NCBI GenBank assembly: GCA_934133005.1 | Contig: CAKPAI010000001.1 | Coordinates: 298,769-362,768 of the forward strand | DNA from: an uncultured Clostridia bacterium | Lineage (GTDB): Bacteria; Bacillota; Clostridia; TANB77; CAG-508 | Reading direction: 5' to 3' | Length of the DNA: 64,000 nucleotides | Part shown: one piece after another, positions 1,939 through 33,383 of the stretch | Position numbering within the stretch: the stretch's first letter is position 1 | Layout: the number at the start of each line of letters is the position of its first letter | The notes under the pieces: generated by a model | The model's input: only the letters and a program-made list of their open reading frames with translations | The model's database searches: none | Told to the model about the DNA's origin: nothing | Program-made: the position numbers and the translations under genes

Positions 1939-1979
1939 GGGCATTTTTTGAGAGGATTTTACCCAATTTTTACCCAATT
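1939..1979 (+). repeat. Arm-type direct repeat A1 (GGCATTTT..GAGG..TTTTACCCAATTTTTACCCAATT) ~100 bp inside left core
   Basis: Near-identical ~40-bp copy at ~23260-23299. Contains tandem TTTTACCCAATT x2. Position just inside core is as expected for integrase arm-binding sites. Confidence 0.55.
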
Positions 1980-5266: not shown

Positions 5267-5302
5267 AATAATTCTGTAATATAATTACTATTATTTTGCT
5301 TT
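5259..5302. terminator. Hairpin AAAGCAAAATAAT...ATTATTTTGCTTT downstream of fic-like gene
   Basis: 11-bp inverted repeat arms with T-run on minus strand after the stem. Confidence 0.45.
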
Positions 5303-5310
5303 TCTTTAGT

Positions 5311-6246: not shown

Positions 6247-6370
6247 AATAAAAACTCTCCTTTTTGATTATAATAATATTATATCATATCATTTCCAAAA
6301 AAGAAAGTTTTTATTTAATTGTTTTATAATTATTTCTAAAATAGAATCATATATTTTGTTATATACTAAC

Positions 6371-8819: not shown

Positions 8820-8904
8820 TTATATTACCTTCTACTCATAAAAATTTAAATTTGGCAAAATTTTAGTAATTTTAATTATTTTTATTATAAGTCAATTTTT
8901 AAAT

Positions 8905-10070: not shown

Positions 10071-13000
10071 CTATTTTATTCTAGAATCAATATATTTCCA
10101 TTCGTCATCTGTTATATTCCATTTTTCACAAAGATACTTATCTGTATAAATCCTATCGTACTTTCCTAAATCAGGTACAAAACAAAATTTATTTCTTAAT
10201 ACATCTTGTGAAACAACAGCTTGTAAAAGTAAAAATCTTATTGTTTTAGTAAATAAATATGATTTAAAATTTTTAACTTCTTCTTCTGTATCAAAAGCTC
10301 CTGCTACAATAAATGATTCTGTACAACATTCACCTGGTTTAGCAATATTCGTATTACCATCATAATAAAATCCAACTGGTTTAGTGAAATCTGTTTGTCC
10401 AGCAATTGGAGATCTAGGAACCAGTAATTTCCATTTATTTAATAATTTATTTTCATCATGTATATCTTTTAAATCGGCATATCTCTTTCCAATCTTTTGT
10501 ATAAACCAGCAAGGAACCCCTTTATCTTTAGGTTTATAATTCGTTGGTAGTCCAAAAGGTTTTTGTGGGGATACCACATTTTCTAGTGTTTTACCATTTT
10601 CTTGTACATTAAAGACTTTCCTAATAATTGGAATAGCTTGGTTAAATCTCACAAATGTATTAAATTCATTTAAATTTCTTGATGAAGAATATTTAACATT
10701 GTTTATAACATTAGTAACTTCACATTCTGTTTTATTATTTTTATCCCATAAGAAATAATTAACACCACCTGCAATATCAGCTGAATCAAAAACATCTCTA
10801 GTATTAGGATAATCAATAATTTTTGTTAAGCATGTATCATTTAGCATATCTTTTCTAAACTCATTCAATCCCATACCTCCAGAAAACCATCTCGATGGAG
10901 TAATCATGCTTATATATTTAGAATCTATTGATTTTGACATATTTATAAACAAATTATATATTGGTTTAGCCTGTGTACCATATCCACCAGTAATTTCTTG
11001 ATATGGAGGGTTTCCAACCACTGCATCGAATTTCATTTGCACTCCTTCCTTATTCCAACTATTAGCATTTAATACATAATTAGTAACTGCTGTTATATTT
11101 TCATCTAATTTAGTTGCAACATCTTCTATTAGTAAAGTATTTACATTATATTCTTTATAACCTGCTAATGTTCTTTTTACAATTTGCATTGCCATTTTAG
11201 TTTTACAAATTATAAAAATATTATTTTCTAATGTTTCTCTCCAAAAATCTTCATTTTTTTCTTCCGTGTAATCTTGCTTATTATAATTTAACAGTCTGTT
11301 CATGTATATACTATAAGAACAATACAAAGCATATAAACCTGTTTTTGAATTTATTTCTAATATTTTAACCTCATTATTCTCAAATAAATCCTTGGTAACA
11401 TTTCCTTGGTTTATAAATCTTGGTTCTTTATCTGGATAATTAAAATTATATCCTCCAATACAGTCTCCTAAATGCATATTTACTGTTTTCCAAGGTGTAA
11501 GTACAGTTTCTTTATCTGGATTTCTAAACATTGAGAATATTTCAGCTAGCTTTTGTATTCTTTCTTTTATAGGCAATGTGTCTGCATATAATGTTGAATT
11601 TCTAATTTGTCTTCCAGCTTCAATAAATATTTCATTATCATAATATTTAGAGAACTTTTTAAATACATCTTTTGTAACGCCATTAGGCATAAATTCATTC
11701 CATGATTTATCATCTACTAATTCAATAAAATTTTGGCTGTCAATATCTTTATTTATTTCAATATCTGCTCCATATATTAGTAATGGTATTCTTATTGATA
11801 TTCCTCTCAATATCGACATTGCTGTTGAAGCTTGTTTTTTCTTTTCTTTTTCTTCTTCAAGTAGTCTTTTTTCTTCTTCAGTTAGCTCTCTCTTAGGTTT
11901 CTTTTTGGCTTCTTCTAATTTCTCATATTCTTCATTATTAAATCCCTGATTGTTAATATCAATACTATCAATTCTTTTTGTTTGTTTACTAACTCCAACT
12001 ATTTTCTTTAAATCATCAAACTCTTTCAAATCTATTTCATCCATTTTTAGTAGATTATCATTATAAATATTTTTATCATCAAATCCATTGGTTACAACTC
12101 TTTGAGCTACTGCTTTTTTTAATTCTCTTAACATTTGAGTAACATCATATTTAATCATTTTAGAACCATCAATTCCAATAATTGGGCAAAAATTTAGAAA
12201 ATGGCTCATAATTTCTTGTGATTGAACTGAACCTGGTCTTACTGATAATTGACCTGCCTGTGCGGCCATTTTTAATGTTCTATCTGGAGCAAAATCAAAC
12301 ACATAACATTTCTCTTTAACTTTGCCTCCAATTTTAGCTGGTGTTTGAACTCTAAATATTGTTTGTAAATAACTAGAAGCCGATGTGGAATATGAGCCAG
12401 AAAGCATGAAAACAGCTGTCCATTCTGGTACACTAACTCCTGTAGTTAATCTTCCACATGAAATTGTAATAGTATTAGTTTCTTCTGGCTTATCTGTTAT
12501 TGCTGTTCTTACCTTCTTTAGAGCTTCTTCATATTTTTCTTCTTCATCACCATTTCCTGCTACATTAACAATCTGAAACATTCCAGATCCAAATACTTCA
12601 TGTTCTTTTAATAATTTACTTAAAGCTTTAGCCTCTTTAACTCCTGGTACCATCCATAATGAATGCCTAAAATATTCAATATACTCTTTAGTTGAATATG
12701 GATAATTAGAATTCTCGTCCTGCTTAGACAATAAATTTAAAAACCTATTTATATCATCTTTATGTACAAAATCTCCTTTTTCATATCCTTTTGGAATAGG
12801 TTTTCGATCAATCTCTAATTCTCCTGTCCAAGTTCTAAAAAATTCTCTAAAGTTAAATGCATTATCCGATACATCCACATATCTAGGCATCAATTTATCT
12901 AAATAATATGTATAAATATTAAGTTGTGGCAAATCGCTATACGGATTAGAATCTCCAAAATGTTCTATATCTGCATCCCATTCTAATTTAGCTGATTGTT

Positions 13001-14012
13001 CCATAATGTAATCCCATGTATAAATTTCATCTTCTTTAAAATCACTTAGTAAATTAAATGGTGTTCCAGATAACATCAATACTTTAGTTTTATAATCATC
13101 ATGTATCTTTACGACACCATCGATTGTCTTTTCTCCTAAACTTGTTCTTGTTCCTTCATGTGCCTCATCAATTACAACTAAGTCCCAGTTATTATTGAAA
13201 ATTAGTTCATCTTTATCAAAATTACCACCTACTTCTGATGATCCTCTTAAATCTTGAATAGAAGCAAAATATACAAATGGTTTATCGCTATCAATTAAAC
13301 TTTCTATATTTTCTCCAAAAGTTTTAGAACCATATTTATAATCACTATCTTTTGAAAATATTTTATTAAAGTCTTCAAACCATCCATTATTTACGACTGG
13401 TCTATGCGTAATTATTATTGTTTTTTTATACTTCTGCCTTCTTACTATTTCTAATGCAGTTAATGTTTTACCAAAACGCATTTTAGCATTCCAAAGCATA
13501 ATATCACTTTTTTTAAAATTTTCAATCGTTTTCTTTATTGCTTCTTCCTGTTCAGGTCTAAATACAATTGGATCCCTATCATAAGAGATCTCTTTTGCAG
13601 TTAACGCTTGTCTATTGTCTTTAACAGCCTTAATAGCTTGCTTAGCAGTTTCCAAATCCACAACAAACCATTCGTTTTGTTTATTCTCTGTATCAAAATA
13701 ATATCTTTCTAATCCGGACCTTAATAAAACATTATGAACTTTTGTATCTTTAAATGAATTACCGTTATTGTCAACTGCTAATTCTGTATATAATAATTCA
13801 TATTTTATACCAGCTGTTGATGTATAACTATTAATCCTATTTTTAGCGGCCTCATTTAATTCTTCAGAATTTGGTTGCAATTCTAACAAAGATTTATTTG
13901 TATGAACTGTAGCCTCTCCTATTTTCAATTTTCCACTATGAAATTCATCATTAATTCTAAAAATATAAATCAACTTATAGCTAAATGTCGACGTAAATTT
14001 ATTTGTTTCCAT
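10071..14012 (-). CDS. 1313-aa three-domain fusion: T5orf172/GIY-YIG-like N-terminal domain + SF2 (ResIII/DEAD-like) helicase + gamma-class N6-adenine DNA methyltransferase; Type ISP/IIG-like single-polypeptide RM candidate
   Basis: N-term YKLIYIFRINDEFHSGKLKIGEAT...NEWFVV (GIY..KIG.T..EWF pattern). Helicase motif I MRFGKTLTALE, II LVVIDEAHEG, III VLMLSGTPFN, VI QTIFRVQTP. MTase motif X TVLTPWKTVNM, motif I ILEINSKTGLYALY, motif IV AVVGNPPYQE. ~300 aa follow NPPY and could be the TRD. Confidence 0.7.
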   Translation of the reverse strand: METNKFTSTFSYKLIYIFRINDEFHSGKLKIGEATVHTNKSLLELQPNSEELNEAAKNRINSYTSTAGIKYELLYTELAVDNNGNSFKDTKVHNVLLRSGLERYYFDTENKQNEWFVVDLETAKQAIKAVKDNRQALTAKEISYDRDPIVFRPEQEEAIKKTIENFKKSDIMLWNAKMRFGKTLTALEIVRRQKYKKTIIITHRPVVNNGWFEDFNKIFSKDSDYKYGSKTFGENIESLIDSDKPFVYFASIQDLRGSSEVGGNFDKDELIFNNNWDLVVIDEAHEGTRTSLGEKTIDGVVKIHDDYKTKVLMLSGTPFNLLSDFKEDEIYTWDYIMEQSAKLEWDADIEHFGDSNPYSDLPQLNIYTYYLDKLMPRYVDVSDNAFNFREFFRTWTGELEIDRKPIPKGYEKGDFVHKDDINRFLNLLSKQDENSNYPYSTKEYIEYFRHSLWMVPGVKEAKALSKLLKEHEVFGSGMFQIVNVAGNGDEEEKYEEALKKVRTAITDKPEETNTITISCGRLTTGVSVPEWTAVFMLSGSYSTSASSYLQTIFRVQTPAKIGGKVKEKCYVFDFAPDRTLKMAAQAGQLSVRPGSVQSQEIMSHFLNFCPIIGIDGSKMIKYDVTQMLRELKKAVAQRVVTNGFDDKNIYNDNLLKMDEIDLKEFDDLKKIVGVSKQTKRIDSIDINNQGFNNEEYEKLEEAKKKPKRELTEEEKRLLEEEKEKKKQASTAMSILRGISIRIPLLIYGADIEINKDIDSQNFIELVDDKSWNEFMPNGVTKDVFKKFSKYYDNEIFIEAGRQIRNSTLYADTLPIKERIQKLAEIFSMFRNPDKETVLTPWKTVNMHLGDCIGGYNFNYPDKEPRFINQGNVTKDLFENNEVKILEINSKTGLYALYCSYSIYMNRLLNYNKQDYTEEKNEDFWRETLENNIFIICKTKMAMQIVKRTLAGYKEYNVNTLLIEDVATKLDENITAVTNYVLNANSWNKEGVQMKFDAVVGNPPYQEITGGYGTQAKPIYNLFINMSKSIDSKYISMITPSRWFSGGMGLNEFRKDMLNDTCLTKIIDYPNTRDVFDSADIAGGVNYFLWDKNNKTECEVTNVINNVKYSSSRNLNEFNTFVRFNQAIPIIRKVFNVQENGKTLENVVSPQKPFGLPTNYKPKDKGVPCWFIQKIGKRYADLKDIHDENKLLNKWKLLVPRSPIAGQTDFTKPVGFYYDGNTNIAKPGECCTESFIVAGAFDTEEEVKNFKSYLFTKTIRFLLLQAVVSQDVLRNKFCFVPDLGKYDRIYTDKYLCEKWNITDDEWKYIDSRIK

Positions 14013-14991
14013 TTTTTCTACTCCTATTTAATAATGTAGTATATTTTATTGGTCTATTAGTTTCCCAATTCATTATTTTACAATAAATTCCATTATGTTT
14101 TTTATAATTATTTTTTTCACAGCCTATACAACTTATTTTTTGTGGCACATCTCCAAATAATGACATATTAATTACTTCATCTGTTTTGCAACTATATGGA
14201 ACTACAAATTTTGTGCCGTCCATTTGCCACACATTCCAAGAAATAATTTTCGCAATCTCTATAATATCTTCAATAAGTGGTTTTTCTTTAAATTTGTATA
14301 AATAATTATCTATAAATGTATACAACAAATTTTCTCTTGCAATCAACAAATTATCTCCTTGAAATTCAAAACCATAAGTATTTTTATATGCTTTCTGTAC
14401 CCAATCCATCCATTCTAACTTATCATTTACATTTTCATTTATAACTCTTAATTTTCTATCTAATAATCCTATCCTATTATTTACTTCTATAATATCACCT
14501 GAAACATTATCATATCTACTTACCAAATATGGTGCTTCTCCACAGGATACTTCCAATCTAGTATTGTAAACATAATCTTGCCATGTTTTATTCGTTTTAG
14601 TTGGAAAATTTATTTTTTCCTTATTTGAAATCCAACTTTTATCACTCTCAATATTAAAAAAACTATCTTCCCCTGACCAAGCATTATCTATTAAATTATT
14701 TTGTGAATTACAAATCCAAGATGGAGTAAAAACTTCAGCCTTATCTCTTATTCTCTTTTCTTGTTCTTTTTTACTTTTCTTTACTCTAGGTTTAATTACA
14801 TTTCCATTATAGCCTGTAATATTTTCAATTTTTATATTATCTTTAACTCCAAATCCTATACCTTTATCTCTATAATTATCAGTAGCCCAAATAATATTGT
14901 TATTTGTCGTATGATCTTTAAGAAGGATATGTAATAATTCATAATTTGTTTTTAGCAATATATTTTCCTGTATATCTGCACTATTTTCCAT
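13999..14991 (-). CDS. Hypothetical 330-aa protein translationally coupled (start/stop overlap) to the helicase-MTase fusion; Cys-rich C-terminus
   Basis: Its stop overlaps the ATG of the downstream 1313-aa gene. Contains AEVFTPSWICN but no MTase motif I/IV. C-terminal CIGCEKNNYKKHNGIYCKIMNW cluster. Function unassigned. Confidence 0.5.
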   Translation of the reverse strand: MENSADIQENILLKTNYELLHILLKDHTTNNNIIWATDNYRDKGIGFGVKDNIKIENITGYNGNVIKPRVKKSKKEQEKRIRDKAEVFTPSWICNSQNNLIDNAWSGEDSFFNIESDKSWISNKEKINFPTKTNKTWQDYVYNTRLEVSCGEAPYLVSRYDNVSGDIIEVNNRIGLLDRKLRVINENVNDKLEWMDWVQKAYKNTYGFEFQGDNLLIARENLLYTFIDNYLYKFKEKPLIEDIIEIAKIISWNVWQMDGTKFVVPYSCKTDEVINMSLFGDVPQKISCIGCEKNNYKKHNGIYCKIMNWETNRPIKYTTLLNRSRKNGNK

Positions 14992-17733: not shown

Positions 17734-18783
17734 ATGAATAAAATAAAATATGATGAACCTATAAATATCTTTGTTTCAACAAATGAAGAATTTACCCATA
17801 AGGCATTTTTATGCGGAAAAACAAAATCATCAAAACCTAAGTATTATGATTTAAAAGATGGAGATACTGGCTATTTTACTATTGATACTATAACTAACAC
17901 ACAACCACTTTGTAGCGAACTCATCTCTTTCTTAAATTGTGATTTTGATAATATTGATGAATGTTTTATGTGGTTTACTAAGTTTTTCACTTCATACATA
18001 ATATATACTGGAGAAGAAGATATAAATAAGTTTGAAATTAATAAATTTTATTCTTTTAGTAAAGTAAAAAATTTATTTAAAAAATATTATGAAGAAATAA
18101 AAAAAGACTCAAAACATGGTCAAAAACTATTATCAAAATTTGTTGATTATATATTTAACCTTGATAACATTAAAGAAATAAATGACTTTAGTACAAAAAT
18201 AAGATTTTATATTTATTATAATTCTCATTTTAAGGAACTTGATAGATTTATAAATAATCATTTTTCTATGCCACAAGGCTTTTCTTTTAGAACTATTTCT
18301 GATATTAAAGGAAATACAGAAAAAGATTTAATAAAATTCTTTAAGTCTAAATCCTCTTATGAAATTGAACCAAATTATAGCACTAGTAACGAAAACATTT
18401 ATGAAATTTTATATGTTACATTGTTTCAATTCGTACTTAATAATAAATATCTTATCAAGAAATGTAAAAATTGTGGTAAATACTTTATAACAGATAATCC
18501 ACGTATTAATTACTGTAATAATTTATACAAAGAAAAACAAACTTGTAGAGATATCGGAAACCAAATTGCTCAAAGAGTTAAGCAAGAAAATGAGATTGTT
18601 TATGGTAAATATCGTAAGATTTATGCAAAAAAAGCAATGTTAGTAAAACGTAATCCTGATATAGAAGTTTATAAGATTGATTATGAAAATTGGAAAAAAG
18701 AAGCTAAAGAATTTATGGATGCCATTAGATCTGAGGAGAAAACTTATAAAGAATTTGATGAGTGGTTGGAAGAAAACAAATAA
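17734..18783 (+). CDS. Hypothetical protein with C-terminal CxNCxxYF...YCN...TC[RK]D[IV]G zinc-finger-like domain; paralog of 27455-28774
   Basis: C-terminal KKCKNCGKYFITDNPRINYCNN...KQTCRDIGNQ aligns with ECENCHQYFIPVNRKDEIYCNR...EKTCKDVGAM of the element-2 protein. Both are transcribed divergently from an excisionase-like HTH gene. Confidence 0.55.
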   Translation: MNKIKYDEPINIFVSTNEEFTHKAFLCGKTKSSKPKYYDLKDGDTGYFTIDTITNTQPLCSELISFLNCDFDNIDECFMWFTKFFTSYIIYTGEEDINKFEINKFYSFSKVKNLFKKYYEEIKKDSKHGQKLLSKFVDYIFNLDNIKEINDFSTKIRFYIYYNSHFKELDRFINNHFSMPQGFSFRTISDIKGNTEKDLIKFFKSKSSYEIEPNYSTSNENIYEILYVTLFQFVLNNKYLIKKCKNCGKYFITDNPRINYCNNLYKEKQTCRDIGNQIAQRVKQENEIVYGKYRKIYAKKAMLVKRNPDIEVYKIDYENWKKEAKEFMDAIRSEEKTYKEFDEWLEENK

Positions 18784-18809
18784 AGGAAAAGTTTATTGCT
18801 TTTCCTTAT

Positions 18810-19712
18810 TTATATAATCATTTCATAATCTATAATATCTCTTACATAATTTTCAAGTAAATTGTCATCAGAAATATATTCGCCCCATTCACAATCACAT
18901 GATATTAATTGATGCCCACATATAGGACACATTTCCCAGTCACATCCATCTAGATGATTTTCTCCTTTTTTAGCTCCACAATCGCCACAGTACTTGCAAT
19001 CAATTGAATAATATGAATCATTCGTATTGAACTTATAATTATAAAATTTCTCTTCATCTCCATATTTTATTCTCTTATATGCATTATTATCTTTTGTAAG
19101 TATATACGAATAGTATTGATTTTCCTCAATATCCTCTTTAAACTGTTTTAATTGTTTTTTAGTAAACTCAATTCCTCTAAAAACCTCAAAATCCTTTGCA
19201 TTATTTAAAATATTCTCAATAACATATTTATATTCTTCATTTTGATATTTATGGTGAAAAATTCTATAGTGTAATTTTGTATAAAGCTCAAATAACTTAC
19301 AATATTTTCTTTTTATTTCAATCGAATTAGCATTTACTTTAAAATGAATAAAATTATTTCTTATATTACCACAAGTAATCAATAAATCAGTTTCATTTTG
19401 TGAAAACAATTTTGGCTTTAAATTTTGCAATCTTGCTATCGATTTCGAATATGTTATAGTTTTTGCTTTATCGCTAATTTTCTCATCAATATTTTCATAA
19501 ATCAAACTTTCGTTAATTCTAAACAGAGCTTCTTTTAATAGTAATTCAATTGCTTGAACTAATAATATAAATGTTGTTTTCCACTTTCTTTTTTCTTCTA
19601 TAGAATTTCTATCTTCATCATGGCTTTCATCATATCCTATCTTTTTATAATAGTATAATGTTTCTTTAATATAATCATATGAATTCTCTATTAAATTTAA
19701 TTCAAAATTCAT
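18810..19712 (-). CDS. HEPN-like (Rx4H) protein with Cys/His-rich C-terminal zinc-ribbon cluster; third gene of SLATT-SMODS operon
   Basis: Helical N-terminal region LLVQAIELLLKEALFRI ... ITCGNIRNNFIHF (R-N-x-F-x-H = HEPN Rx4-6H motif). C-terminal DCKYCGDCGAKKGENHLDGCDWEMCPICGHQLISCDCEWGE. Starts 21 nt after SMODS stop. Confidence 0.45.
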   Translation of the reverse strand: MNFELNLIENSYDYIKETLYYYKKIGYDESHDEDRNSIEEKRKWKTTFILLVQAIELLLKEALFRINESLIYENIDEKISDKAKTITYSKSIARLQNLKPKLFSQNETDLLITCGNIRNNFIHFKVNANSIEIKRKYCKLFELYTKLHYRIFHHKYQNEEYKYVIENILNNAKDFEVFRGIEFTKKQLKQFKEDIEENQYYSYILTKDNNAYKRIKYGDEEKFYNYKFNTNDSYYSIDCKYCGDCGAKKGENHLDGCDWEMCPICGHQLISCDCEWGEYISDDNLLENYVRDIIDYEMII

Positions 19713-19733
19713 CTTATATTTTCTCGCTTTCTT

Positions 19734-21032
19734 TTAAACCCTTATTGGAACATCAATTTTTCCTTTAGCTATACATACATTATTTTTTATTATATATGCT
19801 TCAACATAATGGTCACCATCAAATTTAGAATATTCAGTATGTGTATAACTATTTGTTTCTAAAATTTGTCCCCTAATATCGTTTTTTTGCTTAGCTAAAT
19901 CTCCTTCGTTTTTTACTTTCCAAAGAATTTTATCTATACCATAATTCATAATTTCTGCTTTATTTACTATGTAAAATTCTAATTTTTTATCCCTCTTTAG
20001 AAACACATGATTTGTTATCATATCCCTTAAACTAGCTGGGCGGAATCCATCTTGTGTTACTATACAATCCAATTTTAAATTTAATACTACATCAACAGGA
20101 TATTCATCTTCAATAAATTCTTCTGTATGATCATAAGTGTATTGTTCTTTTTCTTCTTCCTCATTTTGTGCTTTAGGAAATTCTTTTCCAAAAAGATTTC
20201 TTAATTCTTTATTTAAATTTTTAGAATCCTCATTTAAATCTTTAATTTTGTTATAAGCTTTTTTGGCTTTTTTTACGAATTTTCCTCCATCATCATTATA
20301 TATTTTTTGATTACTTCCTATTGCAAACCAATAACTCTGATCTTTATCTTCATTCTTTAAGAACTCAAAAATATCTTTAACTAGATTTAAATAATCTTCA
20401 TATCCACAATTTTGATATTCCTTCTTCTTTTCAGGGAAATTATTAGTTAAAGTATCAATTAATAAGCCTTTAAATTTAAAACCTTTTTTGTTTTTCCATG
20501 ATCTAAGCATATGACATATATTTGTAAAATTTCCATTTGTGTCATCATCTTTTTTCTTACATTCGTCTATTTCTGGAATTGGATTTGTAATCTTCCAGCT
20601 TCCTCCATCATTTGTATCTGGATATTTAAATGAATCATCATTTTGCTTAAATCCTGGAACTAATTCTACTGTGTATTTTGTAAAGTTTATTACTACAACT
20701 TGTCCATCACCTTTTAAGTCTGTATTAGGATATTTTTCTTTCAATACATTTTTTACTTCTTGTAATAATTGAGATTGTTTATTTCCATCATTATCATTTA
20801 TTCTATCATAAACACTCTTAGGTAGATTAAAAAGTATGTCCAAATCACTTGTATTTTTTATTGCTGTAGTTCTACCAACTGAACCTACAATATACATATT
20901 AGATTCGTCATCATCTATGTCATAATAATGTTTATTTAATTTTTTTGTAATGCCTTTTACTGTTGTTTGCATATCTTCAAAATTATCTAGTTTTATGTTG
21001 TTACAGAAATCACAAAAATCATCTTTAATCAT
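19734..21032 (-). CDS. Pol-beta-superfamily nucleotidyltransferase, SMODS/CD-NTase-like (432 aa)
   Basis: GSVGRTTAIKNTSDLDILF = GS-x11-DhDh nucleotidyltransferase active-site motif. ~230-aa C-terminal extension. ATG immediately abuts stop of upstream 2TM gene. Confidence 0.55.
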   Translation of the reverse strand: MIKDDFCDFCNNIKLDNFEDMQTTVKGITKKLNKHYYDIDDDESNMYIVGSVGRTTAIKNTSDLDILFNLPKSVYDRINDNDGNKQSQLLQEVKNVLKEKYPNTDLKGDGQVVVINFTKYTVELVPGFKQNDDSFKYPDTNDGGSWKITNPIPEIDECKKKDDDTNGNFTNICHMLRSWKNKKGFKFKGLLIDTLTNNFPEKKKEYQNCGYEDYLNLVKDIFEFLKNEDKDQSYWFAIGSNQKIYNDDGGKFVKKAKKAYNKIKDLNEDSKNLNKELRNLFGKEFPKAQNEEEEKEQYTYDHTEEFIEDEYPVDVVLNLKLDCIVTQDGFRPASLRDMITNHVFLKRDKKLEFYIVNKAEIMNYGIDKILWKVKNEGDLAKQKNDIRGQILETNSYTHTEYSKFDGDHYVEAYIIKNNVCIAKGKIDVPIRV

Positions 21033-21578
21033 TTATTTTCCCTTTCTAAGCTCTACAGGTAAATAGCTATCTATTTCTTCATCTGAAAATGTATTATCTT
21101 TTTGTATTTTTAAAGCTTTTGATGCTTTTTTTACAGCTCTATCACATGTAGATAAGCTTTTCTTGCATATATTATGATATTTTAATAATATCTCATCTCT
21201 CTTCTTAGTAGCTTCATCCAATTCTATCTTATTTAATTTTATATCTGATAATACACAAATGGTTTCATTTTTTAATTGTAAAAATTCTAATGCGCTTAAT
21301 TTATGACTATCTCTTGATTCTTTTAAATTATATGTTTTATAAAAAGTATTTATAAATAGACATATAGCTGAAAAAACAGTGGTAATTATCTTTAAAGCAA
21401 CTTCATCAATAAAAAAGCAAGTTAATAATCCTGATGTAGTAATTGCTGAAGATAATATCTTGCAAAATTCTAAAACATTAAACCAAAAAGAATTAATATC
21501 ACTATGTTTTTCATGAATTTTATGGTTCCATACTATTGATGCAAAAATTTGTCTTATCTCTGATTCTATTATATTCAT
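21033..21578 (-). CDS. Two-TM helix protein, SLATT-like candidate membrane effector (181 aa)
   Basis: Two adjacent hydrophobic helices (FNVLEFCKILSSAITTSGLLTCFFI ; ALKIITTVFSAICLFINTFY) followed by ~100-aa helical/coiled C-terminus. Directly upstream of the nucleotidyltransferase. Confidence 0.45.
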   Translation of the reverse strand: MNIIESEIRQIFASIVWNHKIHEKHSDINSFWFNVLEFCKILSSAITTSGLLTCFFIDEVALKIITTVFSAICLFINTFYKTYNLKESRDSHKLSALEFLQLKNETICVLSDIKLNKIELDEATKKRDEILLKYHNICKKSLSTCDRAVKKASKALKIQKDNTFSDEEIDSYLPVELRKGK

Positions 21579-21699
21579 ATAAATTCCTCCTATATATTTG
21601 TCGTATTATATCATATTTTCTGTAAATAATCCAGTATTTTCAAAGGATTTTAGCTTTCAAATTTTCGACATTTTTTTACATTTTATTACATTTACAAAT

Positions 21700-21823: not shown

Positions 21824-23017
21824 ATGGCTGGGAGTATAGAAAAAAGAGGAAAAAATAGTTACAGGCTAACAGTATCTGAAGGATTTGGCCTAAACGGAAG
21901 ACCTATGATACACAGAAAAACAGTCCACGGGACTAAAAAAGATGCAGAAGTTGAACTAGCAAAATTTGTTACTGAAGTACAAAATGGTTTAGTACTTGAT
22001 GGTAAATCTCTTAAATTTTCTGAATTTACAGAAATATGGAAAAGAGATTATGGTTCAAAAGAACTTGCTCCATCAACATATAAAAGATATTGTAGAATGT
22101 TAGAAACAAGACTTTTACCATACTTTGGACATTTTTATATTAACAAAATAAAACCAACTGACATTATGAAATTCTATGACTTACTTGAAAAGGATACTCA
22201 GTTAGTTAGGAAAAAAGGTAACAATGGTTCAAAAACAAAAAAGCCCTTATCTGGTAAAACAATTTTAGAGCATCACAGATTATTACGAGCAATGCTTCAT
22301 AAAGCAGTTTATTGGCAATTAATAGTGGCGAATCCTGCTGAACGTGTTCAACCACCTAAAGCTAGAAAACCAAAAAGAAGATCTTATGATGATGAGCAAA
22401 CTAAAATATTACTAGAAAATTTAGAACTATTATCTAGCGAAGATACTAAATACAAAGTTGCAATCATCCTTACAGTATTTACTGGTGTTCGTTTAGGCGA
22501 GTTAATGGGTCTAGAATGGCAAGATGTTGATTTTAAAAACGGAATTATCAGTATTAATCGTTCTAGTCAGTACCTAGCAGATATGGGAGTTTTCACAAAA
22601 GTTCCAAAAACAGAAAGTTCCATTAGAGAAATTGCAATACCTGAATTTATTATTTCTTTACTTGAGAAATATAAGTTATGGTATGAAGAACAAAAATCGA
22701 TTTACGGCGAATTATGGACGAATTCCGATAGGTTATTTGTACAAGCAGATGGCAAACCAATGCATCCTTCTACAATTAGCAAATGGTTTGTAAAATATGT
22801 TGGTCAAATAGGATTACCTGTAATTAATTTTCACGGATTAAGACATACAAATGCAAGTTTACTAGTTGCACAAAATATTGATATAGCAGTAATTTCTGCG
22901 AGACTAGGACATGCACAAATAAGTACTACACTTGATTTTTATGTGCATCCACTACTTTCTCACAATAGAAAAGCTGGATATGCACTAGAAAATTTGTTAT
23001 TACCAACAAGGTCTTAA
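21824..23017 (+). CDS. int: Tyrosine site-specific integrase (phage integrase family, AP2-like arm-binding N-terminal domain)
   Basis: N-term KRGKNSYRLTVSEGFGLNGRPMIHRKTVHGTKKDAEVEL (arm-binding domain). C-terminal HGLRHTNASLL...LGHAQISTTLDFYVH (R..HxxR..Y catalytic box region). Confidence 0.85.
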   Translation: MAGSIEKRGKNSYRLTVSEGFGLNGRPMIHRKTVHGTKKDAEVELAKFVTEVQNGLVLDGKSLKFSEFTEIWKRDYGSKELAPSTYKRYCRMLETRLLPYFGHFYINKIKPTDIMKFYDLLEKDTQLVRKKGNNGSKTKKPLSGKTILEHHRLLRAMLHKAVYWQLIVANPAERVQPPKARKPKRRSYDDEQTKILLENLELLSSEDTKYKVAIILTVFTGVRLGELMGLEWQDVDFKNGIISINRSSQYLADMGVFTKVPKTESSIREIAIPEFIISLLEKYKLWYEEQKSIYGELWTNSDRLFVQADGKPMHPSTISKWFVKYVGQIGLPVINFHGLRHTNASLLVAQNIDIAVISARLGHAQISTTLDFYVHPLLSHNRKAGYALENLLLPTRS

Positions 23018-23259: not shown

Positions 23260-23299
23260 GGCATTTGAGGTATTTATTTTACCCAATTTTTACCCAATT
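23260..23299 (+). repeat. Arm-type direct repeat A2 (GGCATTTGAGGTATTTATTTTACCCAATTTTTACCCAATT) ~120 bp inside middle core
   Basis: Matches 1939-1979 including tandem TTTTACCCAATT x2. Confidence 0.55.
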
Positions 23300-23579: not shown

Positions 23580-26500
23580 TTATCCCACATTATCATTATA
23601 AAAATCTTTTTCTTCATCTATCATTTTGTTTCTAAACATTCTTGTTATTTTAAAATATTGTGCTCTTCTCATCATACTTATTTTAATTACATTACTTGTA
23701 GTAATATGATAGCAATTATATAATATTTCATTTAATTCTTTTTTATTTTCACTAAAATACATTCTTTCAAATTTTCCTAACAATTGATCTATACTTGTAA
23801 TATATTCAACATCATCAATATTTTGTAGTGCTTTTTCTATAAATTTCAAAACAGTTGCTGATTTTATATCATTTTGCTTTATAGTACACAATTCTATCAT
23901 ATTATTTAATAAAACATTATTTGAAATATTATCTAAATTATTATAATTTTGATTTATTATATCATTTAATGTATATTTTTTCATTTTTGACTCTATATTT
24001 AAACAATCTTGTATAGTTCCTTTATCACTAAGAATTCTATTTATATCATCAGTAACAGTTTCTAAATTTTTATTATCAAATGATTTTCCTATAAATTTAA
24101 ATGCTTTATCATAATTAAATCCCTCTAAATCTTTAATATTTCTATTTAGTTCATATATTTTTGATATATAACTAAAATGTTCATCTAGTGCATCAATTAC
24201 TATATTAGGACTGTTTGCTAATTTTATATTATCCACTAAAAATTGCACATATTCTGTCAAATTATCATTTTCACCGCAAAAGAATTTTCTATTATTCCTT
24301 AATATACTAAAACTATCTTCATATGTACTCGTATTTAGGTGTTCATTTAACTTTGGTATTAACAGTTTCATTATATTATCTGGTATTTCATCTTTTAAAA
24401 GCTTGAACGGTAAAATTGCTCTTTCTGGATAGTTATTATAAGCTGATATAACTGTTTTTAAGTATTCTTCCAACTTATCATCACTTATATATTCTTTTGC
24501 ATAAATAACCACCTCATATGTATAATTAAAATATGTCTTATATGATGGATATGATTTATATTTTTTTATTATCGTATCTTCTATAAATTTAGTAATATAT
24601 GATGCGTTTTCTTTTATACATAAGTATTTAAATATTTGTTTTTCTCTTGAATATTCCTTAGATGTATTAAATGCAGACAATTCTGTTAATTTTTCAAATA
24701 TAGTATCTAATATATTTTCATCCAGATATATTACTATATCTTTAAATATTTCATCATATTTTTCGTTTTTGAATATAGTTTCAGTTATATTAGTTAAGGT
24801 CTCTTCTATATATTGTATATTATCTTTGTCTTTAATCAAAATGTTTTTTATAAGTTCTTGAGCTTTCTCTTGCTCTAAGTTATCATTTAAATATTGATCT
24901 ATGTCTTCGCTATTTTCGTCGTTTATTTCGAAATTTATTTTATTTAATATATCTAAAGCATTTACTTTATCTTGACTCTTAGATGTTGCTATTATGTTAG
25001 CTATTTCTGTACCTTTATTTACATCTATATTGTTGCATAATTCCTTTGTAAATAGTCTATTTAGCCTTTCAAGTAATTTAGTATATTTAAATAGTACTAT
25101 TATGTCATCTATGGAATCTAATACTTTATCAACTTTGTCTAGTTCTTTGAAATACTCTTCATATTTAGATAGAATCTTCTCTGAAAAGTCGTTACTTGTA
25201 TCCATATATTTACATAGTGTATTAAATAGTTGATTCCCAAAATATTCTACAAAAATGGTCTGTTCTTTAATATTTACTTTTTCAATAAATATATTAATTT
25301 TTTCTGTATTATTTTCTATTACTTTACAAATAAACTCTTTAAAATTGCCCTTTATATTACTTTCTAAGTTATCTTTTTCTTCTAAATATTTATTTATAAT
25401 TTCTATGTTTTTATCCAAATCTGTATTTTCTTTTGCACAATCTATATATTTATCTAAAAGTTTATTTATGTATTCTTTTTTATTTGCTAATTTTAATATA
25501 GAAAACACATTGTTTATATTTAGTTCTAAAATATTTATTTCTTCTTTAGTATAATCTAAATTATATATTTTTTCTGATAAGTTTTCAGCAATAATAGTCT
25601 TATTCTCTTCTTTTATAACATCAAAAGAATTTATTATTGTTATTATTCCATTTAATAAATCTGTATCTTCTGCATTATCTAGCTCATACATAATTGAATC
25701 AATCATATTGTCATTTTCTTCAATCATTTTTCTGACTGTTTTTGTATTTTTGCTCTCCATAGCTGAAACAATACGTCTATTATTTTCATCACCTGTTTTT
25801 ATACTTATTTCATCTTGTATTAAATACATAAATGGTGCTATATTATTGACTTGATATTTTTCAGTTTGCTTCAAAAAATTTATTAACGGTTCATATTCTG
25901 ATTTTATTTCAGCCTTAATATTTTCTTCATTACCTTTCTGTTCAAAAAATATTTGTAAATCTTCATCTATTTCGTTTATTTTTTTGCTTGTTTCATGTAA
26001 GTCAACAATTCTTTTTATATAATTGAAGTTTCTAAATAACACATCATAAAAATCATTAAAATCAGCTTGTAAAACTGATATCTTTGCTAATTGCAAATCA
26101 GATTCTTCACTATCTAATAAATTTTTTTCAATTTTTCCATTTTTGCTTCTATTGGTCATTAATATTTTATTGTTAACAAATGTATTTATAAGTTTTTTTA
26201 CTTGTCTAGGTGTAGTTACATTTTTGTGTATTAATACCTTTCTAATTACACTTTCCAGTCTATTCATTGTGCAATACTCTTCTATAAAATCCGGTATATT
26301 CTCTTGTACTAAATTTACTGCATATTCTTTTATATCAAAATCTAATAATGGTGGTATATATATTTTATATTGAAACAACTTGTCTAATATTAGCTCACTT
26401 TCTACCATTTGATGATTACCATCTAATTTTATTGTTCTGTTTTGGTCTAATGCCTTTTTTAAAATTGAATCATCAAAAGGAACTATAAAAATACAATTCT

Positions 26501-27308
26501 CAAATCCCACAAACGCTTTTATTGCATCTAATGCTTCTACTATTTTGTCAATGCTTAACCTATCTAAATCATCTATTACTGTTACAATTTTTTTCTTTTT
26601 GTTCTGTCCTATTTTTTTATTTATTGTATCTTCTAAAAATGTTTCATAATCATCTGTTGTTTCTATTGGTATTTTAACTTCAATTTTTTTATCGTATCTT
26701 TTTATAAACTCTGATAGAGTAACTGTAACAAATGATAATATTAAAGGAAATATCAATACTTTTCCAATATTTTTGCAATATCCAAGAAACCATTCTCTCC
26801 AAAATCCATCACCAAATCCATTAAGTTGTACAGCTTTATATATTATAAATGCTACAATACTTACTAATGATATTCCAAAACTTATTTTACAAAATGTTTT
26901 CATCATATTTTTAAATCTTGAATCATCTTCTGTTTCATCTTGATTTATAATATCTCTATATATTTTTTTAATTGTTTCAAAAGTTTTGACTTTTTCACCA
27001 CTAATTCCTTGCCATAATTGTTTTAGAAACACATTTTTTAATGATTCTTTTTCGTATTTCCAAGCATTTATCTCTTGGACAATATAATTGTCAGAGTCTT
27101 TTCTATATTTATCTAATAGTAAATTTACTATTGAAGATTTTCCTATCCCCCATTTTCCAATTAAAGCTATATTATATGGCGGATTTGTATTTTCAATAAT
27201 TAACCTTAAATTATCTACTACGTCTTTTTGATTGAATCTATCGTCATCTATACTTATTAATTCACTATCTTTTAAAAAATATTTTTTCTCTTTTTTCTTT
27301 TTATCCAT
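23580..27308 (-). CDS. KAP-family P-loop NTPase, 1242 aa, with ~850-aa low-complexity C-terminal extension
   Basis: Walker A NIALIGKWGIGKSS. Two TM helices inserted after Walker A (ISFGISLVSIVAFIIYKAV ; VLIFPLILSFVTVTLSEFI). Walker B VTVIDDLDR. Insertion of TM helices into the NTPase core is the KAP hallmark. Confidence 0.75.
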   Translation of the reverse strand: MDKKKKEKKYFLKDSELISIDDDRFNQKDVVDNLRLIIENTNPPYNIALIGKWGIGKSSIVNLLLDKYRKDSDNYIVQEINAWKYEKESLKNVFLKQLWQGISGEKVKTFETIKKIYRDIINQDETEDDSRFKNMMKTFCKISFGISLVSIVAFIIYKAVQLNGFGDGFWREWFLGYCKNIGKVLIFPLILSFVTVTLSEFIKRYDKKIEVKIPIETTDDYETFLEDTINKKIGQNKKKKIVTVIDDLDRLSIDKIVEALDAIKAFVGFENCIFIVPFDDSILKKALDQNRTIKLDGNHQMVESELILDKLFQYKIYIPPLLDFDIKEYAVNLVQENIPDFIEEYCTMNRLESVIRKVLIHKNVTTPRQVKKLINTFVNNKILMTNRSKNGKIEKNLLDSEESDLQLAKISVLQADFNDFYDVLFRNFNYIKRIVDLHETSKKINEIDEDLQIFFEQKGNEENIKAEIKSEYEPLINFLKQTEKYQVNNIAPFMYLIQDEISIKTGDENNRRIVSAMESKNTKTVRKMIEENDNMIDSIMYELDNAEDTDLLNGIITIINSFDVIKEENKTIIAENLSEKIYNLDYTKEEINILELNINNVFSILKLANKKEYINKLLDKYIDCAKENTDLDKNIEIINKYLEEKDNLESNIKGNFKEFICKVIENNTEKINIFIEKVNIKEQTIFVEYFGNQLFNTLCKYMDTSNDFSEKILSKYEEYFKELDKVDKVLDSIDDIIVLFKYTKLLERLNRLFTKELCNNIDVNKGTEIANIIATSKSQDKVNALDILNKINFEINDENSEDIDQYLNDNLEQEKAQELIKNILIKDKDNIQYIEETLTNITETIFKNEKYDEIFKDIVIYLDENILDTIFEKLTELSAFNTSKEYSREKQIFKYLCIKENASYITKFIEDTIIKKYKSYPSYKTYFNYTYEVVIYAKEYISDDKLEEYLKTVISAYNNYPERAILPFKLLKDEIPDNIMKLLIPKLNEHLNTSTYEDSFSILRNNRKFFCGENDNLTEYVQFLVDNIKLANSPNIVIDALDEHFSYISKIYELNRNIKDLEGFNYDKAFKFIGKSFDNKNLETVTDDINRILSDKGTIQDCLNIESKMKKYTLNDIINQNYNNLDNISNNVLLNNMIELCTIKQNDIKSATVLKFIEKALQNIDDVEYITSIDQLLGKFERMYFSENKKELNEILYNCYHITTSNVIKISMMRRAQYFKITRMFRNKMIDEEKDFYNDNVG

Positions 27309-27454
27309 TATTACACATTCCCTTCAATAGTTTTATATTTTCATTTTTTGTCTTTTGTGTAATATTCTCATTTTTATATTAGCAATTCTATCATATTTTT
27401 CCAATTTTGTATATATTTTCCACAAATTTGCCAGACGTCTGGCAAATTCAATTT

Positions 27455-28774
27455 TCATTTTTTAATTTTTCTATTTTTACCAACTTTTTTTCTATTATCA
27501 AATACTTCTATCCTTTGTAACATATCATTTACCTTAATTTTGCCTTCAGCACATTCTTGTTTTAATTCTAATGCCATATAATTCCATTGATTAAACTCAC
27601 TTTTTGAAATTATTTTCCTATCAGCTTTATATTTATACCTTTTATATACTCTCCAATATTCTTTTTCTCCTGGTATATCTCCTGCTTTTTCTTTATGTCT
27701 ATTCATTGCTCCAACATCTTTGCAAGTTTTTTCTGTTCCTTTTATTGGTCGATTACAATATATTTCATCTTTTCTATTTACTGGTATAAAATATTGATGA
27801 CAATTTTCGCATTCTTTAAACTCTATATCACTGCTTACAAATTTTAATAATTCAAATCGAATTAAATCGTTCATATCCTTAATTTCATATAATTCCTTTA
27901 TTTCTGTGCTATCTCTTTTAACCACATCAATCAAATCTTTACTTGTTTTATATTCAGCTGTTTCATCTAAATTAGGAACTGCCCTATAAAATACATTAAA
28001 TGGTTTGTTTATATAAAAATTATCTTGTTTATTTTCAATAACTCTTGTTTGATCTAGAACATATAGTTTTTGTGCATTTGACATTCCTTCTAATTGACTA
28101 TTGGTTATTTTTTTATAAATATAATCTATCTCTTCTTTTAAAATGGCTCTCTTTCTCTTTATATCTGCTATAATTTCTTTTCTTACATAATGATAAAATT
28201 TTATATATCTTTCCTTTTTCTTTTCGTCAATTACTGATGCCAATTTTCTAATTCCTATATATCTATCTGTTTTTAATTTTTTATCTTTATTTGCATTTTC
28301 ATGTTCTACATAAATACAATTTTTTACAGTAGTATCTGGCATTCTCTTTTCTAATATATCCATTCTTTCTACTCCACTTGTTGGAGTTTCAGACATAATT
28401 TCATATAGCATTTGTGTATAAAAGTGCATATATACACAACTATTATCTATTTGTGCCATTAAATCTTGTAACATTTCTATGTAATCAAACATTGATATTT
28501 TAGTATTCGAAGCTTTTTGAGTTATTAAATCAATAACTTGTGTATATGCCATATTTATTTCATCAATATCTAAATACATAAAATTTAATAAATGTATTCC
28601 TAATGGAAATTCCATTCTCTGTACTCCTAAAAAATCTTCATTATCTGGATAAATACATATATGATTATTTTCGTTCAAAGTCGCATATAAAGCCATTTTA
28701 TCACCCCTATATTTTTGGAATATCGATATTTTGCATTTTTTAGAAAATCGATTTCTACGATACATATTATACAA
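27455..28774 (-). CDS. Hypothetical protein with C-terminal Zn-finger-like domain, paralog of 17734-18783 (likely start at MALYATL ~28696)
   Basis: C-terminal ECENCHQYFIPVNRKDEIYCNRPIKGTEKTCKDVGAM. Divergent from HTH gene at 28959. Confidence 0.55.
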   Translation of the reverse strand: MYNMYRRNRFSKKCKISIFQKYRGDKMALYATLNENNHICIYPDNEDFLGVQRMEFPLGIHLLNFMYLDIDEINMAYTQVIDLITQKASNTKISMFDYIEMLQDLMAQIDNSCVYMHFYTQMLYEIMSETPTSGVERMDILEKRMPDTTVKNCIYVEHENANKDKKLKTDRYIGIRKLASVIDEKKKERYIKFYHYVRKEIIADIKRKRAILKEEIDYIYKKITNSQLEGMSNAQKLYVLDQTRVIENKQDNFYINKPFNVFYRAVPNLDETAEYKTSKDLIDVVKRDSTEIKELYEIKDMNDLIRFELLKFVSSDIEFKECENCHQYFIPVNRKDEIYCNRPIKGTEKTCKDVGAMNRHKEKAGDIPGEKEYWRVYKRYKYKADRKIISKSEFNQWNYMALELKQECAEGKIKVNDMLQRIEVFDNRKKVGKNRKIKK

Positions 28775-28958
28775 AACTATTGTAATTTTTTCAATATCGT
28801 TTTATTATTTCCATCAGAAGCAGATAAAAATTTTATCTTCGCTTATGTACATTGAAAACTAAATAGTCCAGATATACACAAATAAAGAAACTTCTACCTG
28901 GCTAACGTGATGTAAAGGGGTAGCTCTCCTAGATGGAGGGAATGGAAACAGAACCATT

Positions 28959-29234
28959 ATGGTATTAAATACATATATAGGGACGTTAAACAAGAAAAAA
29001 AAATTTTTGAGGAAAGGAGAACAAATACCTATGAGAAGTACATTTAAAACAAACGAAGAATTACCTGCAACATTGTCAGCAACAGATATTAGTAAATACT
29101 TAGGAATTTCGAAAGCTAATTCATATCAATTAATGAATCGTTCAGATTTTCCTACACTTAAACTTGGTAAACGAAAATTAGTACCAAAAGATAAATTTTT
29201 AATATGGGTAAATAACAATACAAATGTTATTTAG
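28959..29234 (+). CDS. Excisionase-family HTH DNA-binding protein (probable true start ~29031, MRSTFK...)
   Basis: LSATDISKYLGISKANSYQLMNRSDFPTLKLGKRKLVPKDKFLIWV, typical excisionase/HTH_17-like. RBS gaggaaaggagaacaaatacctATG before internal Met. Confidence 0.65.
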   Translation: MVLNTYIGTLNKKKKFLRKGEQIPMRSTFKTNEELPATLSATDISKYLGISKANSYQLMNRSDFPTLKLGKRKLVPKDKFLIWVNNNTNVI

Positions 29235-29246
29235 AAGGAGTAACTT

Positions 29247-31172: not shown

Positions 31173-31174
31173 TA

Positions 31175-31370
31175 TTTTCTGTTACAACTGTTACATTTTT
31201 CTAAATTGCATATGGTTGTAAGAAAATATTAGTAACAATTATCTAAAATTATCTGATACAAAAATGAAACAGAATTTGTTACAACTTGTATCAGATATGT
31301 AACAAATAACGAAAGTTTATAATCAACTTATATAACTATATTCTACAGTGTTGTAACAGATGTAACAGTA
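31175..31370. promoter_or_regulatory. Candidate oriT: six copies of TGTTACA/TGTAACA in direct and inverted arrangement upstream of mobC
   Basis: tgttacaactgttaca (~31179), ttgttacaacttgtatcagatatgtaacaa (~31275, inverted pair), tgttgtaacagatgtaacag (~31348). Confidence 0.45.
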
Positions 31371-31444
31371 TTTTTATATATAATACTTCACTTCTTGCTA
31401 AATTTAAGCTATTCTTTGTAGTTTTTTATAGGCAAGATTCCTAA

Positions 31445-33132: not shown

Positions 33133-33150
33133 AAAATATTTTTAACAATA

Positions 33151-33372: not shown

Positions 33373-33383
33373 AAAAGGAAATA

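Follow-up and report, generated by a model that had tools for sequence, protein, structure and literature searches.

The 64,000-nucleotide stretch of contig CAKPAI010000001.1 from an uncultured Clostridia bacterium (here called the window, always meaning the stretch at its full length) contains three genes that, according to the list of open reading frames (ORFs), are arranged in tandem on the minus strand. Genes 1, 2 and 3 encode a SLATT membrane protein, a cGAS/DncV-like nucleotidyltransferase (CD-NTase) and a HEPN protein with a Cys/His-rich tail, respectively. A preliminary description made from the sequence had interpreted the three genes as one nucleotide-second-messenger immunity module with two possible effectors. 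In the present analysis, genes 1 and 2 were assigned to a predicted Type I cyclic oligonucleotide-based antiphage signalling system (CBASS), while gene 3 is most likely a separate defence cassette located behind it. The coordinates of all features are compiled in Table 1.

The tight packing of the three genes pointed out in the preliminary description was confirmed with its coordinates: the ATG of gene 2 directly abuts the stop codon TAA of gene 1 (AAATAA followed by ATG), and gene 3 follows gene 2 after a gap of 21 nt. Upstream of gene 1, a Shine-Dalgarno sequence and an extended -10-like element, TGATATAAT, were found, the latter being accompanied by a poor -35 element (TGGATT) at a spacing of 17 nt. 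Because a generic promoter scan performed at chance level in this DNA of about 25% GC (30 promoters found against 28 expected), TGATATAAT is regarded as a candidate promoter element only. The terminator scan returned 3 hairpins against 0.5 expected. None of them is located between genes 2 and 3, and since the only terminator-like hairpin of the operon, at 18783-18807, lies 3' of gene 3, co-transcription of genes 1 to 3 is likely. Neither the window nor the operon leader gave a match to an RNA family of Rfam, and the window contains no tRNA genes.

Table 1. Positions of the three genes, their motifs and domains, and the surrounding features in the window
Feature	Position	Strand	Remarks
Gene 1	21578..21033	-	181 aa, SLATT_4 protein with two transmembrane helices
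Hydrophobic hairpin of gene 1, two adjacent transmembrane helices, residues ~38-80	21339..21467	-	Kyte-Doolittle
Gene 2	21032..19734	-	432 aa, SMODS CD-NTase fused to AGS-C
SMODS nucleotidyltransferase core, residues 3-161	20550..21026	-	Pfam PF18144, 1.5e-39
Catalytic motif G50-S51-x11-D63-x-D65	20838..20885	-	Regular expression on translation; invariant in alignment
AGS-C domain, Ig-like putative sensor, residues 302-431	19740..20129	-	Pfam PF18134, 7.8e-39
Gene 3	19712..18810	-	300 aa, HEPN (DUF3644-type) and Cys/His zinc module
HEPN Rx4H motif R118-N-N-F-I-H123	19344..19361	-	Invariant in 34 homologues
C-terminal module of gene 3, residues 160-280	18873..19235	-	Alpha/beta region with R-I-K-Y-G-D-E hairpin, then zinc core
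Zinc core C242-x2-C245-x7-H253-x3-C257-D-x-E-x-C262-P-x-C265-x6-C272-x-C274	18891..18989	-	All eight ligands invariant
Shine-Dalgarno sequence AGGAGG	21586..21591	-	7 nt 5' of the gene 1 ATG, read from sequence
Candidate extended -10-like element TGATATAAT	21605..21613	-	Upstream of gene 1, read from sequence
Terminator-like hairpin, bidirectional	18783..18807	.	Between convergent gene 3 and DUF6076 genes
Tyrosine integrase	21824..23017	+	Pfam Phage_integrase 1.9e-25, Phage_int_SAM_3 1.6e-14; divergent from gene 1
Candidate attachment site, right copy, ATTTTACCCAATTTTTACCCAATT	23276..23299	+	Exact 24-mer
Candidate attachment site, left copy, ATTTTACCCAATTTTTACCCAATT	1956..1979	+	Exact 24-mer
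Cargo region	2486-9924		Includes 926-aa SF1-type helicase (AAA_30/UvrD_C_2)
HTH-Fic protein	5311-6246		Element cargo
Two ORFs without Pfam match	6371-7822 and 7794-8819		Element cargo
Mrr_cat nuclease	8905-9924		Element cargo
ResIII-helicase/Eco57I-methylase fusion	10071-14012		1313 aa, element cargo
Type II methyltransferase	13999-14991		Element cargo
DUF6076 proteins	17734-18783 and 27455-28774		One per adjacent element
MobA/VirD2 relaxase	31882-33132		Second element
Second tyrosine integrase	33796-35109		Second element

The product of gene 1 matched the Pfam family SLATT_4 (PF18186) over residues 5-168 with 164 of the 165 profile positions (2.5e-40), the corresponding NCBIfam model at 4.8e-30 and the PADLOC model PDLC00696, a CBASS 2TM Effector, at 4.6e-51. 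Residues 38-80 form its sole strongly hydrophobic stretch, with Kyte-Doolittle values between 1.4 and 1.9 in 19-residue windows. A hairpin of two membrane helices fits this region, and gene 1 is predicted to encode the membrane effector of a CBASS.

For gene 2, the PADLOC CBASS oligonucleotide cyclase PDLC00796 was matched in full length (residues 2-431, 1.9e-163), in addition to the SMODS and AGS-C families of Pfam. An alignment with 23 homologues, extending down to 36% identity, showed that G50, S51, both aspartates of D63-L-D65 and E123 are invariant. The profile made from these homologues matched the solved CD-NTases 6p8u/6p82 (3.6e-11), the entry 9sa4 named 'CD-NTase' (2.8e-8) and the cyclic AMP-AMP-GMP synthases 7ljl/7d48; together, the matches to solved CD-NTases span residues 2-288. 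From these matches gene 2 is assigned as a bilobed CD-NTase with an extra domain and not as a minimal nucleotidyltransferase (MNT). The preliminary description had recognised the SLATT pattern of gene 1, the GS-x11-DxD motif and the SMODS/CD-NTase character of gene 2, all of which held up against these profiles and alignments, and the C-terminal extension of about 230 aa that it had ascribed to the nucleotidyltransferase could be attributed to the helical lobe of the CD-NTase and the AGS-C domain. It had also named two findings that would have recast the locus as a toxin-antitoxin module, namely a minimal MNT paired with a HEPN protein or a 2TM protein without the SLATT fold; the CD-NTase-AGS-C architecture and the SLATT_4 match speak against both.

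With domain matches far above chance, genes 1 and 2 are predicted to constitute a two-gene Type I CBASS anti-phage system of ordinary architecture, i.e. a membrane effector and a signal-making enzyme. The SLATT_4 gene precedes the cyclase gene in every complete locus that was fetched with a cyclase identity of 65% to 99%. Flanking the CBASS are the genes for a tyrosine integrase, gene 3, DUF6076 and HTH_17, and no Cap2/Cap3 (E1-E2/JAB), HORMA/TRIP13 or QueC/TGT/OGG-like genes were detected among the flanking genes of the operon. The cyclase family is large, comprising more than 3593 proteins at E<=1e-20. A scan of genome contigs with the cyclase as single protein returned 5 loci, and the related contigs of the genome contig scan originate from uncultured human-gut Clostridia.

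In contrast to the cyclase family, which is about 50 times larger, the family of gene 3 comprises 69 proteins, mostly from Clostridia. Gene 3 has no match in Pfam or NCBIfam. The best PADLOC match of gene 3 and its homologues is PDC-S64 (1.6e-13 to 6e-24), where gene 3 itself was matched at 1.6e-13 and at profile positions 2-224 of 339 only; the PADLOC model DUF3644 was matched at 3.3e-5. The Pfam family DUF3644 was matched by 6 of 34 family members, the best at 3.6e-5, below the gathering score. In the alignment of 34 homologues, which reaches down to 26% identity, R118 and H123 are invariant, so that the R-N-N-F-I-H motif noted in the preliminary description is indeed conserved as a HEPN motif, and W44, Q53, E56, L57, L58, K60 and R94 are invariant as well. 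The protein has the helical HEPN fold with its best structural matches in 7ae2, 5yep and 8xdj, which are HEPN toxins of HEPN/MNT modules, while the comparison of the family sequence profile with PDB sequences gave no meaningful match. Gene 3 is therefore classified here as a HEPN protein, putatively of the DUF3644 / EC042_2821 clade, and as a predicted ribonuclease.

The closest characterised protein is HEC-08, a single-gene defence system from E. coli ECOR52, in which mutation of H128 of the Rx4-6H motif abolished defence (Payne et al., bioRxiv 10.1101/2024.01.29.577857). By hhalign, HEC-08 was aligned to the gene 3 family with a probability of 92.4% (E 5e-7, 82 columns), and its residues R123/H128 were placed on R118/H123 of gene 3; only the HEPN core is included in this alignment. 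Since gene 3 was not matched by the HEC-08 hidden Markov model (HMM) at E<=1 (HEC-08 itself: 1.1e-173), and since no homology between the Cys-rich C-terminal regions of the two proteins was detectable, gene 3 is considered a relative in kind of HEC-08, placed outside its family. As a separate observation, locus L053 (897-1667) carries the same DUF3644-type HEPN N-domain with a different Cys-rich C-terminal region and a weak HEC-08 match (5e-7), which suggests that the HEPN core has been combined with several alternative zinc-finger tails.

The C-terminal tail of gene 3, described previously as a cluster of about 10 Cys/His residues, does contain 8 Cys and 2 His, but the conserved ligands number eight: C242, C245, H253, C257, C262, C265, C272 and C274 are invariant in the same 34 homologues. 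D258, E260, P263 and Q268 of the zinc core are likewise invariant. Eight ligands would be enough for two zinc sites. With domain HMMs built from the family, the stretch of residues ~160-280 was found not only fused to HEPN but also in proteins lacking that domain, namely in fusions to TIR_2 and in small solo proteins. Across these proteins the consensus of the module consists of an R-[IV]-[KR]-Y-G-[DE]-E hairpin followed by CxxC-x7-H-x3-CDxExCPxC-x6-CxC, and this module matches no Pfam family.

The distribution of the zinc module was surveyed by an exhaustive phmmer search, which yielded 1177 representative clusters at E<=1e-3, mostly of proteins with 60-130 aa. Architectures were counted for the 144 newly returned representatives from the top 150 phmmer matches. 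The majority are solo zinc-module proteins of at most 135 aa (83/144), followed by HEPN fusions (33/144) and other longer proteins (28/144), the last including fusions to Resolvase (2), NADAR (1) and TIR_2 (1). More TIR_2 fusions of the module (E ~1e-19) were present in metagenome loci. The loci listed for the module are L061, L074, L088, L093, L103, L087, L092, L096, L097 and L107. The metagenome scan for gene 3 used an alignment of 20 closer sequences; a word-indexed homologue search with the C-terminal 126 residues of gene 3 gave two fragments. Several of the solo copies lie in phage-like gene arrays. The gene for a large terminase (5e-179) is located about 2.4 kb downstream of the copy in L107, and other solo copies are found near PHROG matches to a phage helicase or a phage reverse transcriptase (RT)/polymerase. 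Weak matches to the zinc core were also obtained in the mycobacteriophages I3, Sauce, Tonenili and JayJay (E 2e-4 to 6e-4). In single-protein defence systems, a domain with a sensing or regulatory role can usually be recognised by its occurrence with different toxic domains. As the zinc module is swapped between effector proteins with HEPN, TIR and NADAR domains, it is, by analogy, likely to be the sensor or regulatory part of gene 3.

The relation of gene 3 to the CBASS was analysed at 15 distinct loci with gene 3 homologues of 28-74% identity and at least 1.9 kb of upstream sequence each. Neither a cyclase nor a SLATT gene was found near the homologue at any of the 15 loci by tblastn, the cyclase HMM or Pfam annotation. 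Neighbours in these contexts included a polysaccharide locus, an EcoRII restriction-modification (R-M) system, a ResIII-Eco57I enzyme, an AriA/PtuA-like ATPase and, on the E. faecium plasmid pVEF3, an RT of the retron Ec67 family. In an integrase element of C. beijerinckii, the homologue lies beside a type VI retron RT and an HNH protein, and some homologues are chromosomal and non-mobile and adjoin housekeeping genes. Direct linkage of the cyclase and gene 3 was seen at ten loci with gene 3 identities of 78-98%, and all ten (10/10) are members of a single element family with the gene order integrase-SLATT-cyclase-gene 3-DUF6076-HTH_17-Rep.

Even within this element family, the slot behind the cyclase gene is variable. 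Locus L026, a member of the same element family with a cyclase 84% identical, has no gene 3; between the stop codon of its cyclase gene and the DUF6076 gene lie only about 60 nt, which contain a hairpin of their own. In the sister element L027, whose cyclase is also 84% identical, the slot is occupied by an unrelated ORF of 294 aa (3588-4472) with no match in Pfam or PADLOC. A diverged gene 3 was considered for this ORF and rejected, as BLASTP was not significant and the gene 3 domain HMMs did not match; the ORF is possibly a further piece of uncharacterised defence cargo. A comparable exchange was observed on the chromosome, where a SLATT-cyclase pair lies between rhodanese and DUF1810 genes in L028 (5455-7278), and a gene 3 homologue (74% identical), a 253-aa ORF and an AriA/PtuA-like ATPase lie between rhodanese and DUF1810 genes in L011 (7001-10708). 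Judged by the Pfam annotations of the flanks, both look like the same chromosomal hotspot with alternative cargo. Moreover, no SAVED, CARF, STING or other known cyclic-nucleotide sensor domain was found in gene 3 with Pfam, NCBIfam or PADLOC. Because of the CBASS-free contexts of the homologues, the loss or replacement of gene 3 in L026 and L027 and the lack of a nucleotide-sensor domain, gene 3 is most likely a cassette of one gene that moves independently and occupies a variable slot behind the CBASS pair. The view of the locus as a nucleotide-second-messenger immunity module thus holds for genes 1 and 2 as a Type I CBASS but probably does not extend to gene 3, and the idea of one system with two possible effectors was not borne out, given that gene 3 is linked to CBASS in a single element lineage, in none of the 15 distant contexts, and lacks a sensor domain. 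As this locus shows, genes packed tightly into an operon within a defence island need not form a single system, and such packing is no evidence of one.

Taken together, a Type I CBASS formed by genes 1 and 2 and a separate HEPN defence module formed by gene 3, sharing one transcript on an integrase element of about 21 kb, is the favoured interpretation, with a probability of roughly 0.75. Several points weigh against it. Within the element lineage the three genes are kept together down to 78% identity of gene 3 and 85% identity of the cyclase, and the gap between cyclase and gene 3 is 20-21 nt with no terminator in that lineage. Because of this lineage-wide retention, the short gap and the lack of an intervening terminator, co-expression of the three genes is likely, so functional cooperation is conceivable. 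In addition, genes of the gene 3 family recur directly behind retron-type RTs in three contexts. On the E. faecium plasmid pVEF3 (NC_010980.1; L112, 4291-6870), an Ec67-like retron RT/endonuclease precedes the gene 3 homologue with a gap of 27 nt; in L043 (3270-5847), an Ec67-like retron RT precedes it with a gap of about 13 nt; and in L004 (4869-6846), the preceding gene encodes a type VI retron RT. Between L043 and pVEF3 the RTs are 53% identical, whereas the gene 3 homologues are just 31% identical. The recurrence of a retron RT or CD-NTase before gene 3 may reflect piggy-backing in defence islands, which is also how the PDC models were defined, or it may reflect functional coupling. Furthermore, gene 3 misses the HEC-08 HMM and covers only two thirds of PDC-S64, itself a predicted system.

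If the three genes formed one integrated CBASS, the nucleotide signal would activate both the SLATT protein and the HEPN ribonuclease, or gene 3 would tune the CBASS. The packing with 21 nt and no terminator and the joint maintenance of the genes across element variants at 78% to 98% identity would suit such a system, and CBASS operons swap effectors and sometimes carry two, as exemplified by VvCdnG09-CapV-Cap5 (bioRxiv 10.1101/2023.05.21.541620). This arrangement is nevertheless quite improbable: gene 3 contains no recognisable ligand-binding domain such as SAVED, CARF or STING, its more distant homologues are found near a cyclase in 0 of 15 distinct cases, it is missing or replaced in sister elements, and the cyclase family exceeds its own about 50-fold. 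The C-terminal module, too, is found on TIR, NADAR and resolvase proteins, and solo outside any CBASS. A toxin-antitoxin pair of the HEPN/MNT kind, in which the nucleotidyltransferase would neutralise the HEPN protein, e.g. by AMPylation, with no involvement of the SLATT gene, could be proposed from the position of the nucleotidyltransferase gene directly upstream of gene 3 and from the HEPN/MNT toxins 7ae2, 5yep and 8xdj as best structural matches. It is hardly credible, as the nucleotidyltransferase is a SMODS and AGS-C protein of 432 aa with a full-length match to a CBASS cyclase, whereas an MNT has about 100-150 aa, and as it is always paired with SLATT and not with gene 3, while an NTP_transf_2-type neighbour is absent from gene 3 homologues elsewhere. 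The AMPylated tyrosine of HEPN/MNT toxins lies in an Rx4HxY motif. After H123, gene 3 reads F-K and its homologues read Y/F-K, so there is no Tyr at position +2. The toxin-antitoxin reading was rejected because of the architecture of the nucleotidyltransferase, the missing conserved nucleotidyltransferase partner in co-occurrence elsewhere and the lack of a conserved Tyr at +2.

Gene 3 might also have no part in phage defence and act as an addiction or stabilisation toxin, or serve the mobile element in RNA processing or regulation. Its carriage on integrative elements and plasmids is in line with this, as is the presence of the zinc module in resolvase fusions and in many small proteins of phages and mobile elements, which suggests general nucleic-acid or protein binding; the defence role of the gene 3 family is drawn from its relatives by analogy. 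On the other hand, some homologues are chromosomal, non-mobile and located beside housekeeping genes, HEC-08, the closest relative that has been characterised, was validated in defence and depends on its HEPN histidine, the PADLOC model matched by the family stems from genes within BREX, DISARM or type I R-M loci, and defence genes are enriched among the neighbours of gene 3. A role outside defence is hence judged unlikely. The odds are also well against the speculative proposal that the zinc module is an undescribed portable infection-sensing domain on HEPN, TIR and NADAR killing domains, with the phage-like solo copies being its evolutionary source or blocking decoys of phages; related to it is the idea that gene 3-family proteins are truly coupled to CD-NTases and retron RTs instead of piggy-backing on them.

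Under the favoured interpretation, with two separate modules on one transcript, the CD-NTase would be inactive until infection, as deduced from characterised CBASS, and the Ig-like AGS-C domain would probably help to recognise a phage cue. By homology, the activated enzyme would synthesise a cyclic di- or oligonucleotide, in response to which the SLATT_4 protein would permeabilise the membrane and cause death or arrest of the cell before phage release. Gene 3 would act as a self-contained HEC-08-like HEPN ribonuclease of the DUF3644 clade with the HEPN domain (R118/H123) as its effector. An infection cue sensed by the zinc module would release the ribonuclease, probably a dimer as in other HEPN enzymes, and RNA cleavage would lead to growth arrest; the RNase activity as well as the sensing are transferred from homologous proteins. 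While domain identities, fold, motif conservation, co-occurrence and slot variability were directly observed, the co-transcription that underlies this model is inferred, as are signal synthesis and membrane killing. Gene 3 would have been inserted into the variable cargo slot between the stop codon of the cyclase gene and the terminator of the element, and it would be co-transcribed with the CBASS yet independent of the CBASS signal, so that the shared promoter would provide layered defence.

The carrier of the operon would be delimited by an exact 24-nt direct repeat, ATTTTACCCAATTTTTACCCAATT, which occurs only twice in the window (0 expected) and is itself an internal tandem of TTTTACCCAATT. 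The same 22-mer is present about 250 nt beyond the integrase gene in six related loci (L015, L016, L022, L023, L032 and L033). The repeat copies are probably attL and attR of an integrative element of about 21.3 kb (1956-23299) with the integrase gene at its end. Its cargo is almost entirely defence-like and consists of an SF1-type helicase, an HTH-Fic protein, an Mrr-like nuclease, the ResIII-Eco57I fusion with the methyltransferase, gene 3 and the CBASS. In L010 (853-6885), homologues of the methyltransferase (60%) and of the ResIII-Eco57I fusion (50%) of the window are followed after 143 nt by a gene 3 homologue (55%), and this trio has therefore been re-assorted in another genome. DUF6076 genes adjoin HTH_17/Rep genes in all related elements and represent a conserved backbone gene of the element family. 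Directly beside the first element lies a second one (23580-35109), which encodes a KAP-family NTPase of 1242 aa with weak PifA/QatA-like matches. The two adjacent elements look like tandem integrative or mobilisable elements.

With respect to CBASS, the locus represents one more case of a well-known architecture, here in an uncultured gut Clostridia lineage, and it adds little more than that the system is carried by a small integrative element and followed there by a variable cargo slot. The more useful outcome is the small DUF3644-type HEPN family of gene 3 with its compact eight-ligand zinc module outside Pfam. Should this module prove to be a sensor, or to be targeted by phage mimicry, it would offer a new handle on the recognition of infection by single-protein abortive-infection systems, and the unclassified zinc module is accordingly the most promising lead.

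Compared with known HEPN proteins, gene 3 resembles HEC-08 most closely. Both have an N-terminal DUF3644-type HEPN domain and a Cys-rich, zinc-finger-like C-terminal region, both match the structure of SO_3166 (5yep), and both match the PDC-S64 and DUF3644 models. They differ in the tail, which in HEC-08 contains several zinc fingers over about 190 residues, whereas in gene 3 an alpha/beta linker leads to just one compact module with eight ligands. PDC-S64 is a single-gene defence candidate of PADLOC, a prediction derived from genes found inside BREX, DISARM or type I R-M loci, and gene 3 differs from it in the C-terminal part, beyond the matched profile positions; in the literature search and in those supplementary tables of Payne et al. 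that were accessible, no mention of PDC-S64 by name was found. The HEPN toxins of HEPN/MNT modules (7ae2, 5yep and 8xdj) are single-domain proteins of ~130-150 aa under the control of a small MNT partner. Gene 3 is longer by a C-terminal region of 140 residues and has neither a cognate MNT nor a conserved Tyr at H+2. Only distant fold similarity exists to HepS, a HEPN defence protein of prophage Gifsy-1, which by the title of its entry is bound to the lambda J tail tip (PDB 9oik) and which has no zinc module.

The predicted CBASS pair has closer counterparts. A fusion of CD-NTase and AGS-C is present in ~40% of Type I CBASS operons, where the Ig-like AGS-C domain, to which no function was assigned, correlates with phage specificity, and phage restriction in E. 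coli was at least 10^4-fold with EcCdnF04-SLATT6 and EcCdnF05-SLATT6, both of them operons of two genes (Richmond-Buccola et al., bioRxiv 10.1101/2023.05.21.541620). The lactococcal plasmid pUCCL631 carries a SLATT gene (PF18186) with a nucleotidyltransferase/AGS-C gene annotated as Type I CBASS (PMC11381338). The phage-tested E. coli systems use SLATT_6, whereas gene 1 belongs to SLATT_4, and the host, a gut Clostridia known from a metagenome-assembled genome, is unlike those of the E. coli and lactococcal systems. As in the operon described here, the effector gene in EcCdnF04/F05-SLATT6 and in pUCCL631 lies directly upstream of the cyclase gene, the cyclase is fused to AGS-C and ancillary Cap2/3 or HORMA genes are absent, and the effector of pUCCL631 belongs to the same family as gene 1 (SLATT_4).

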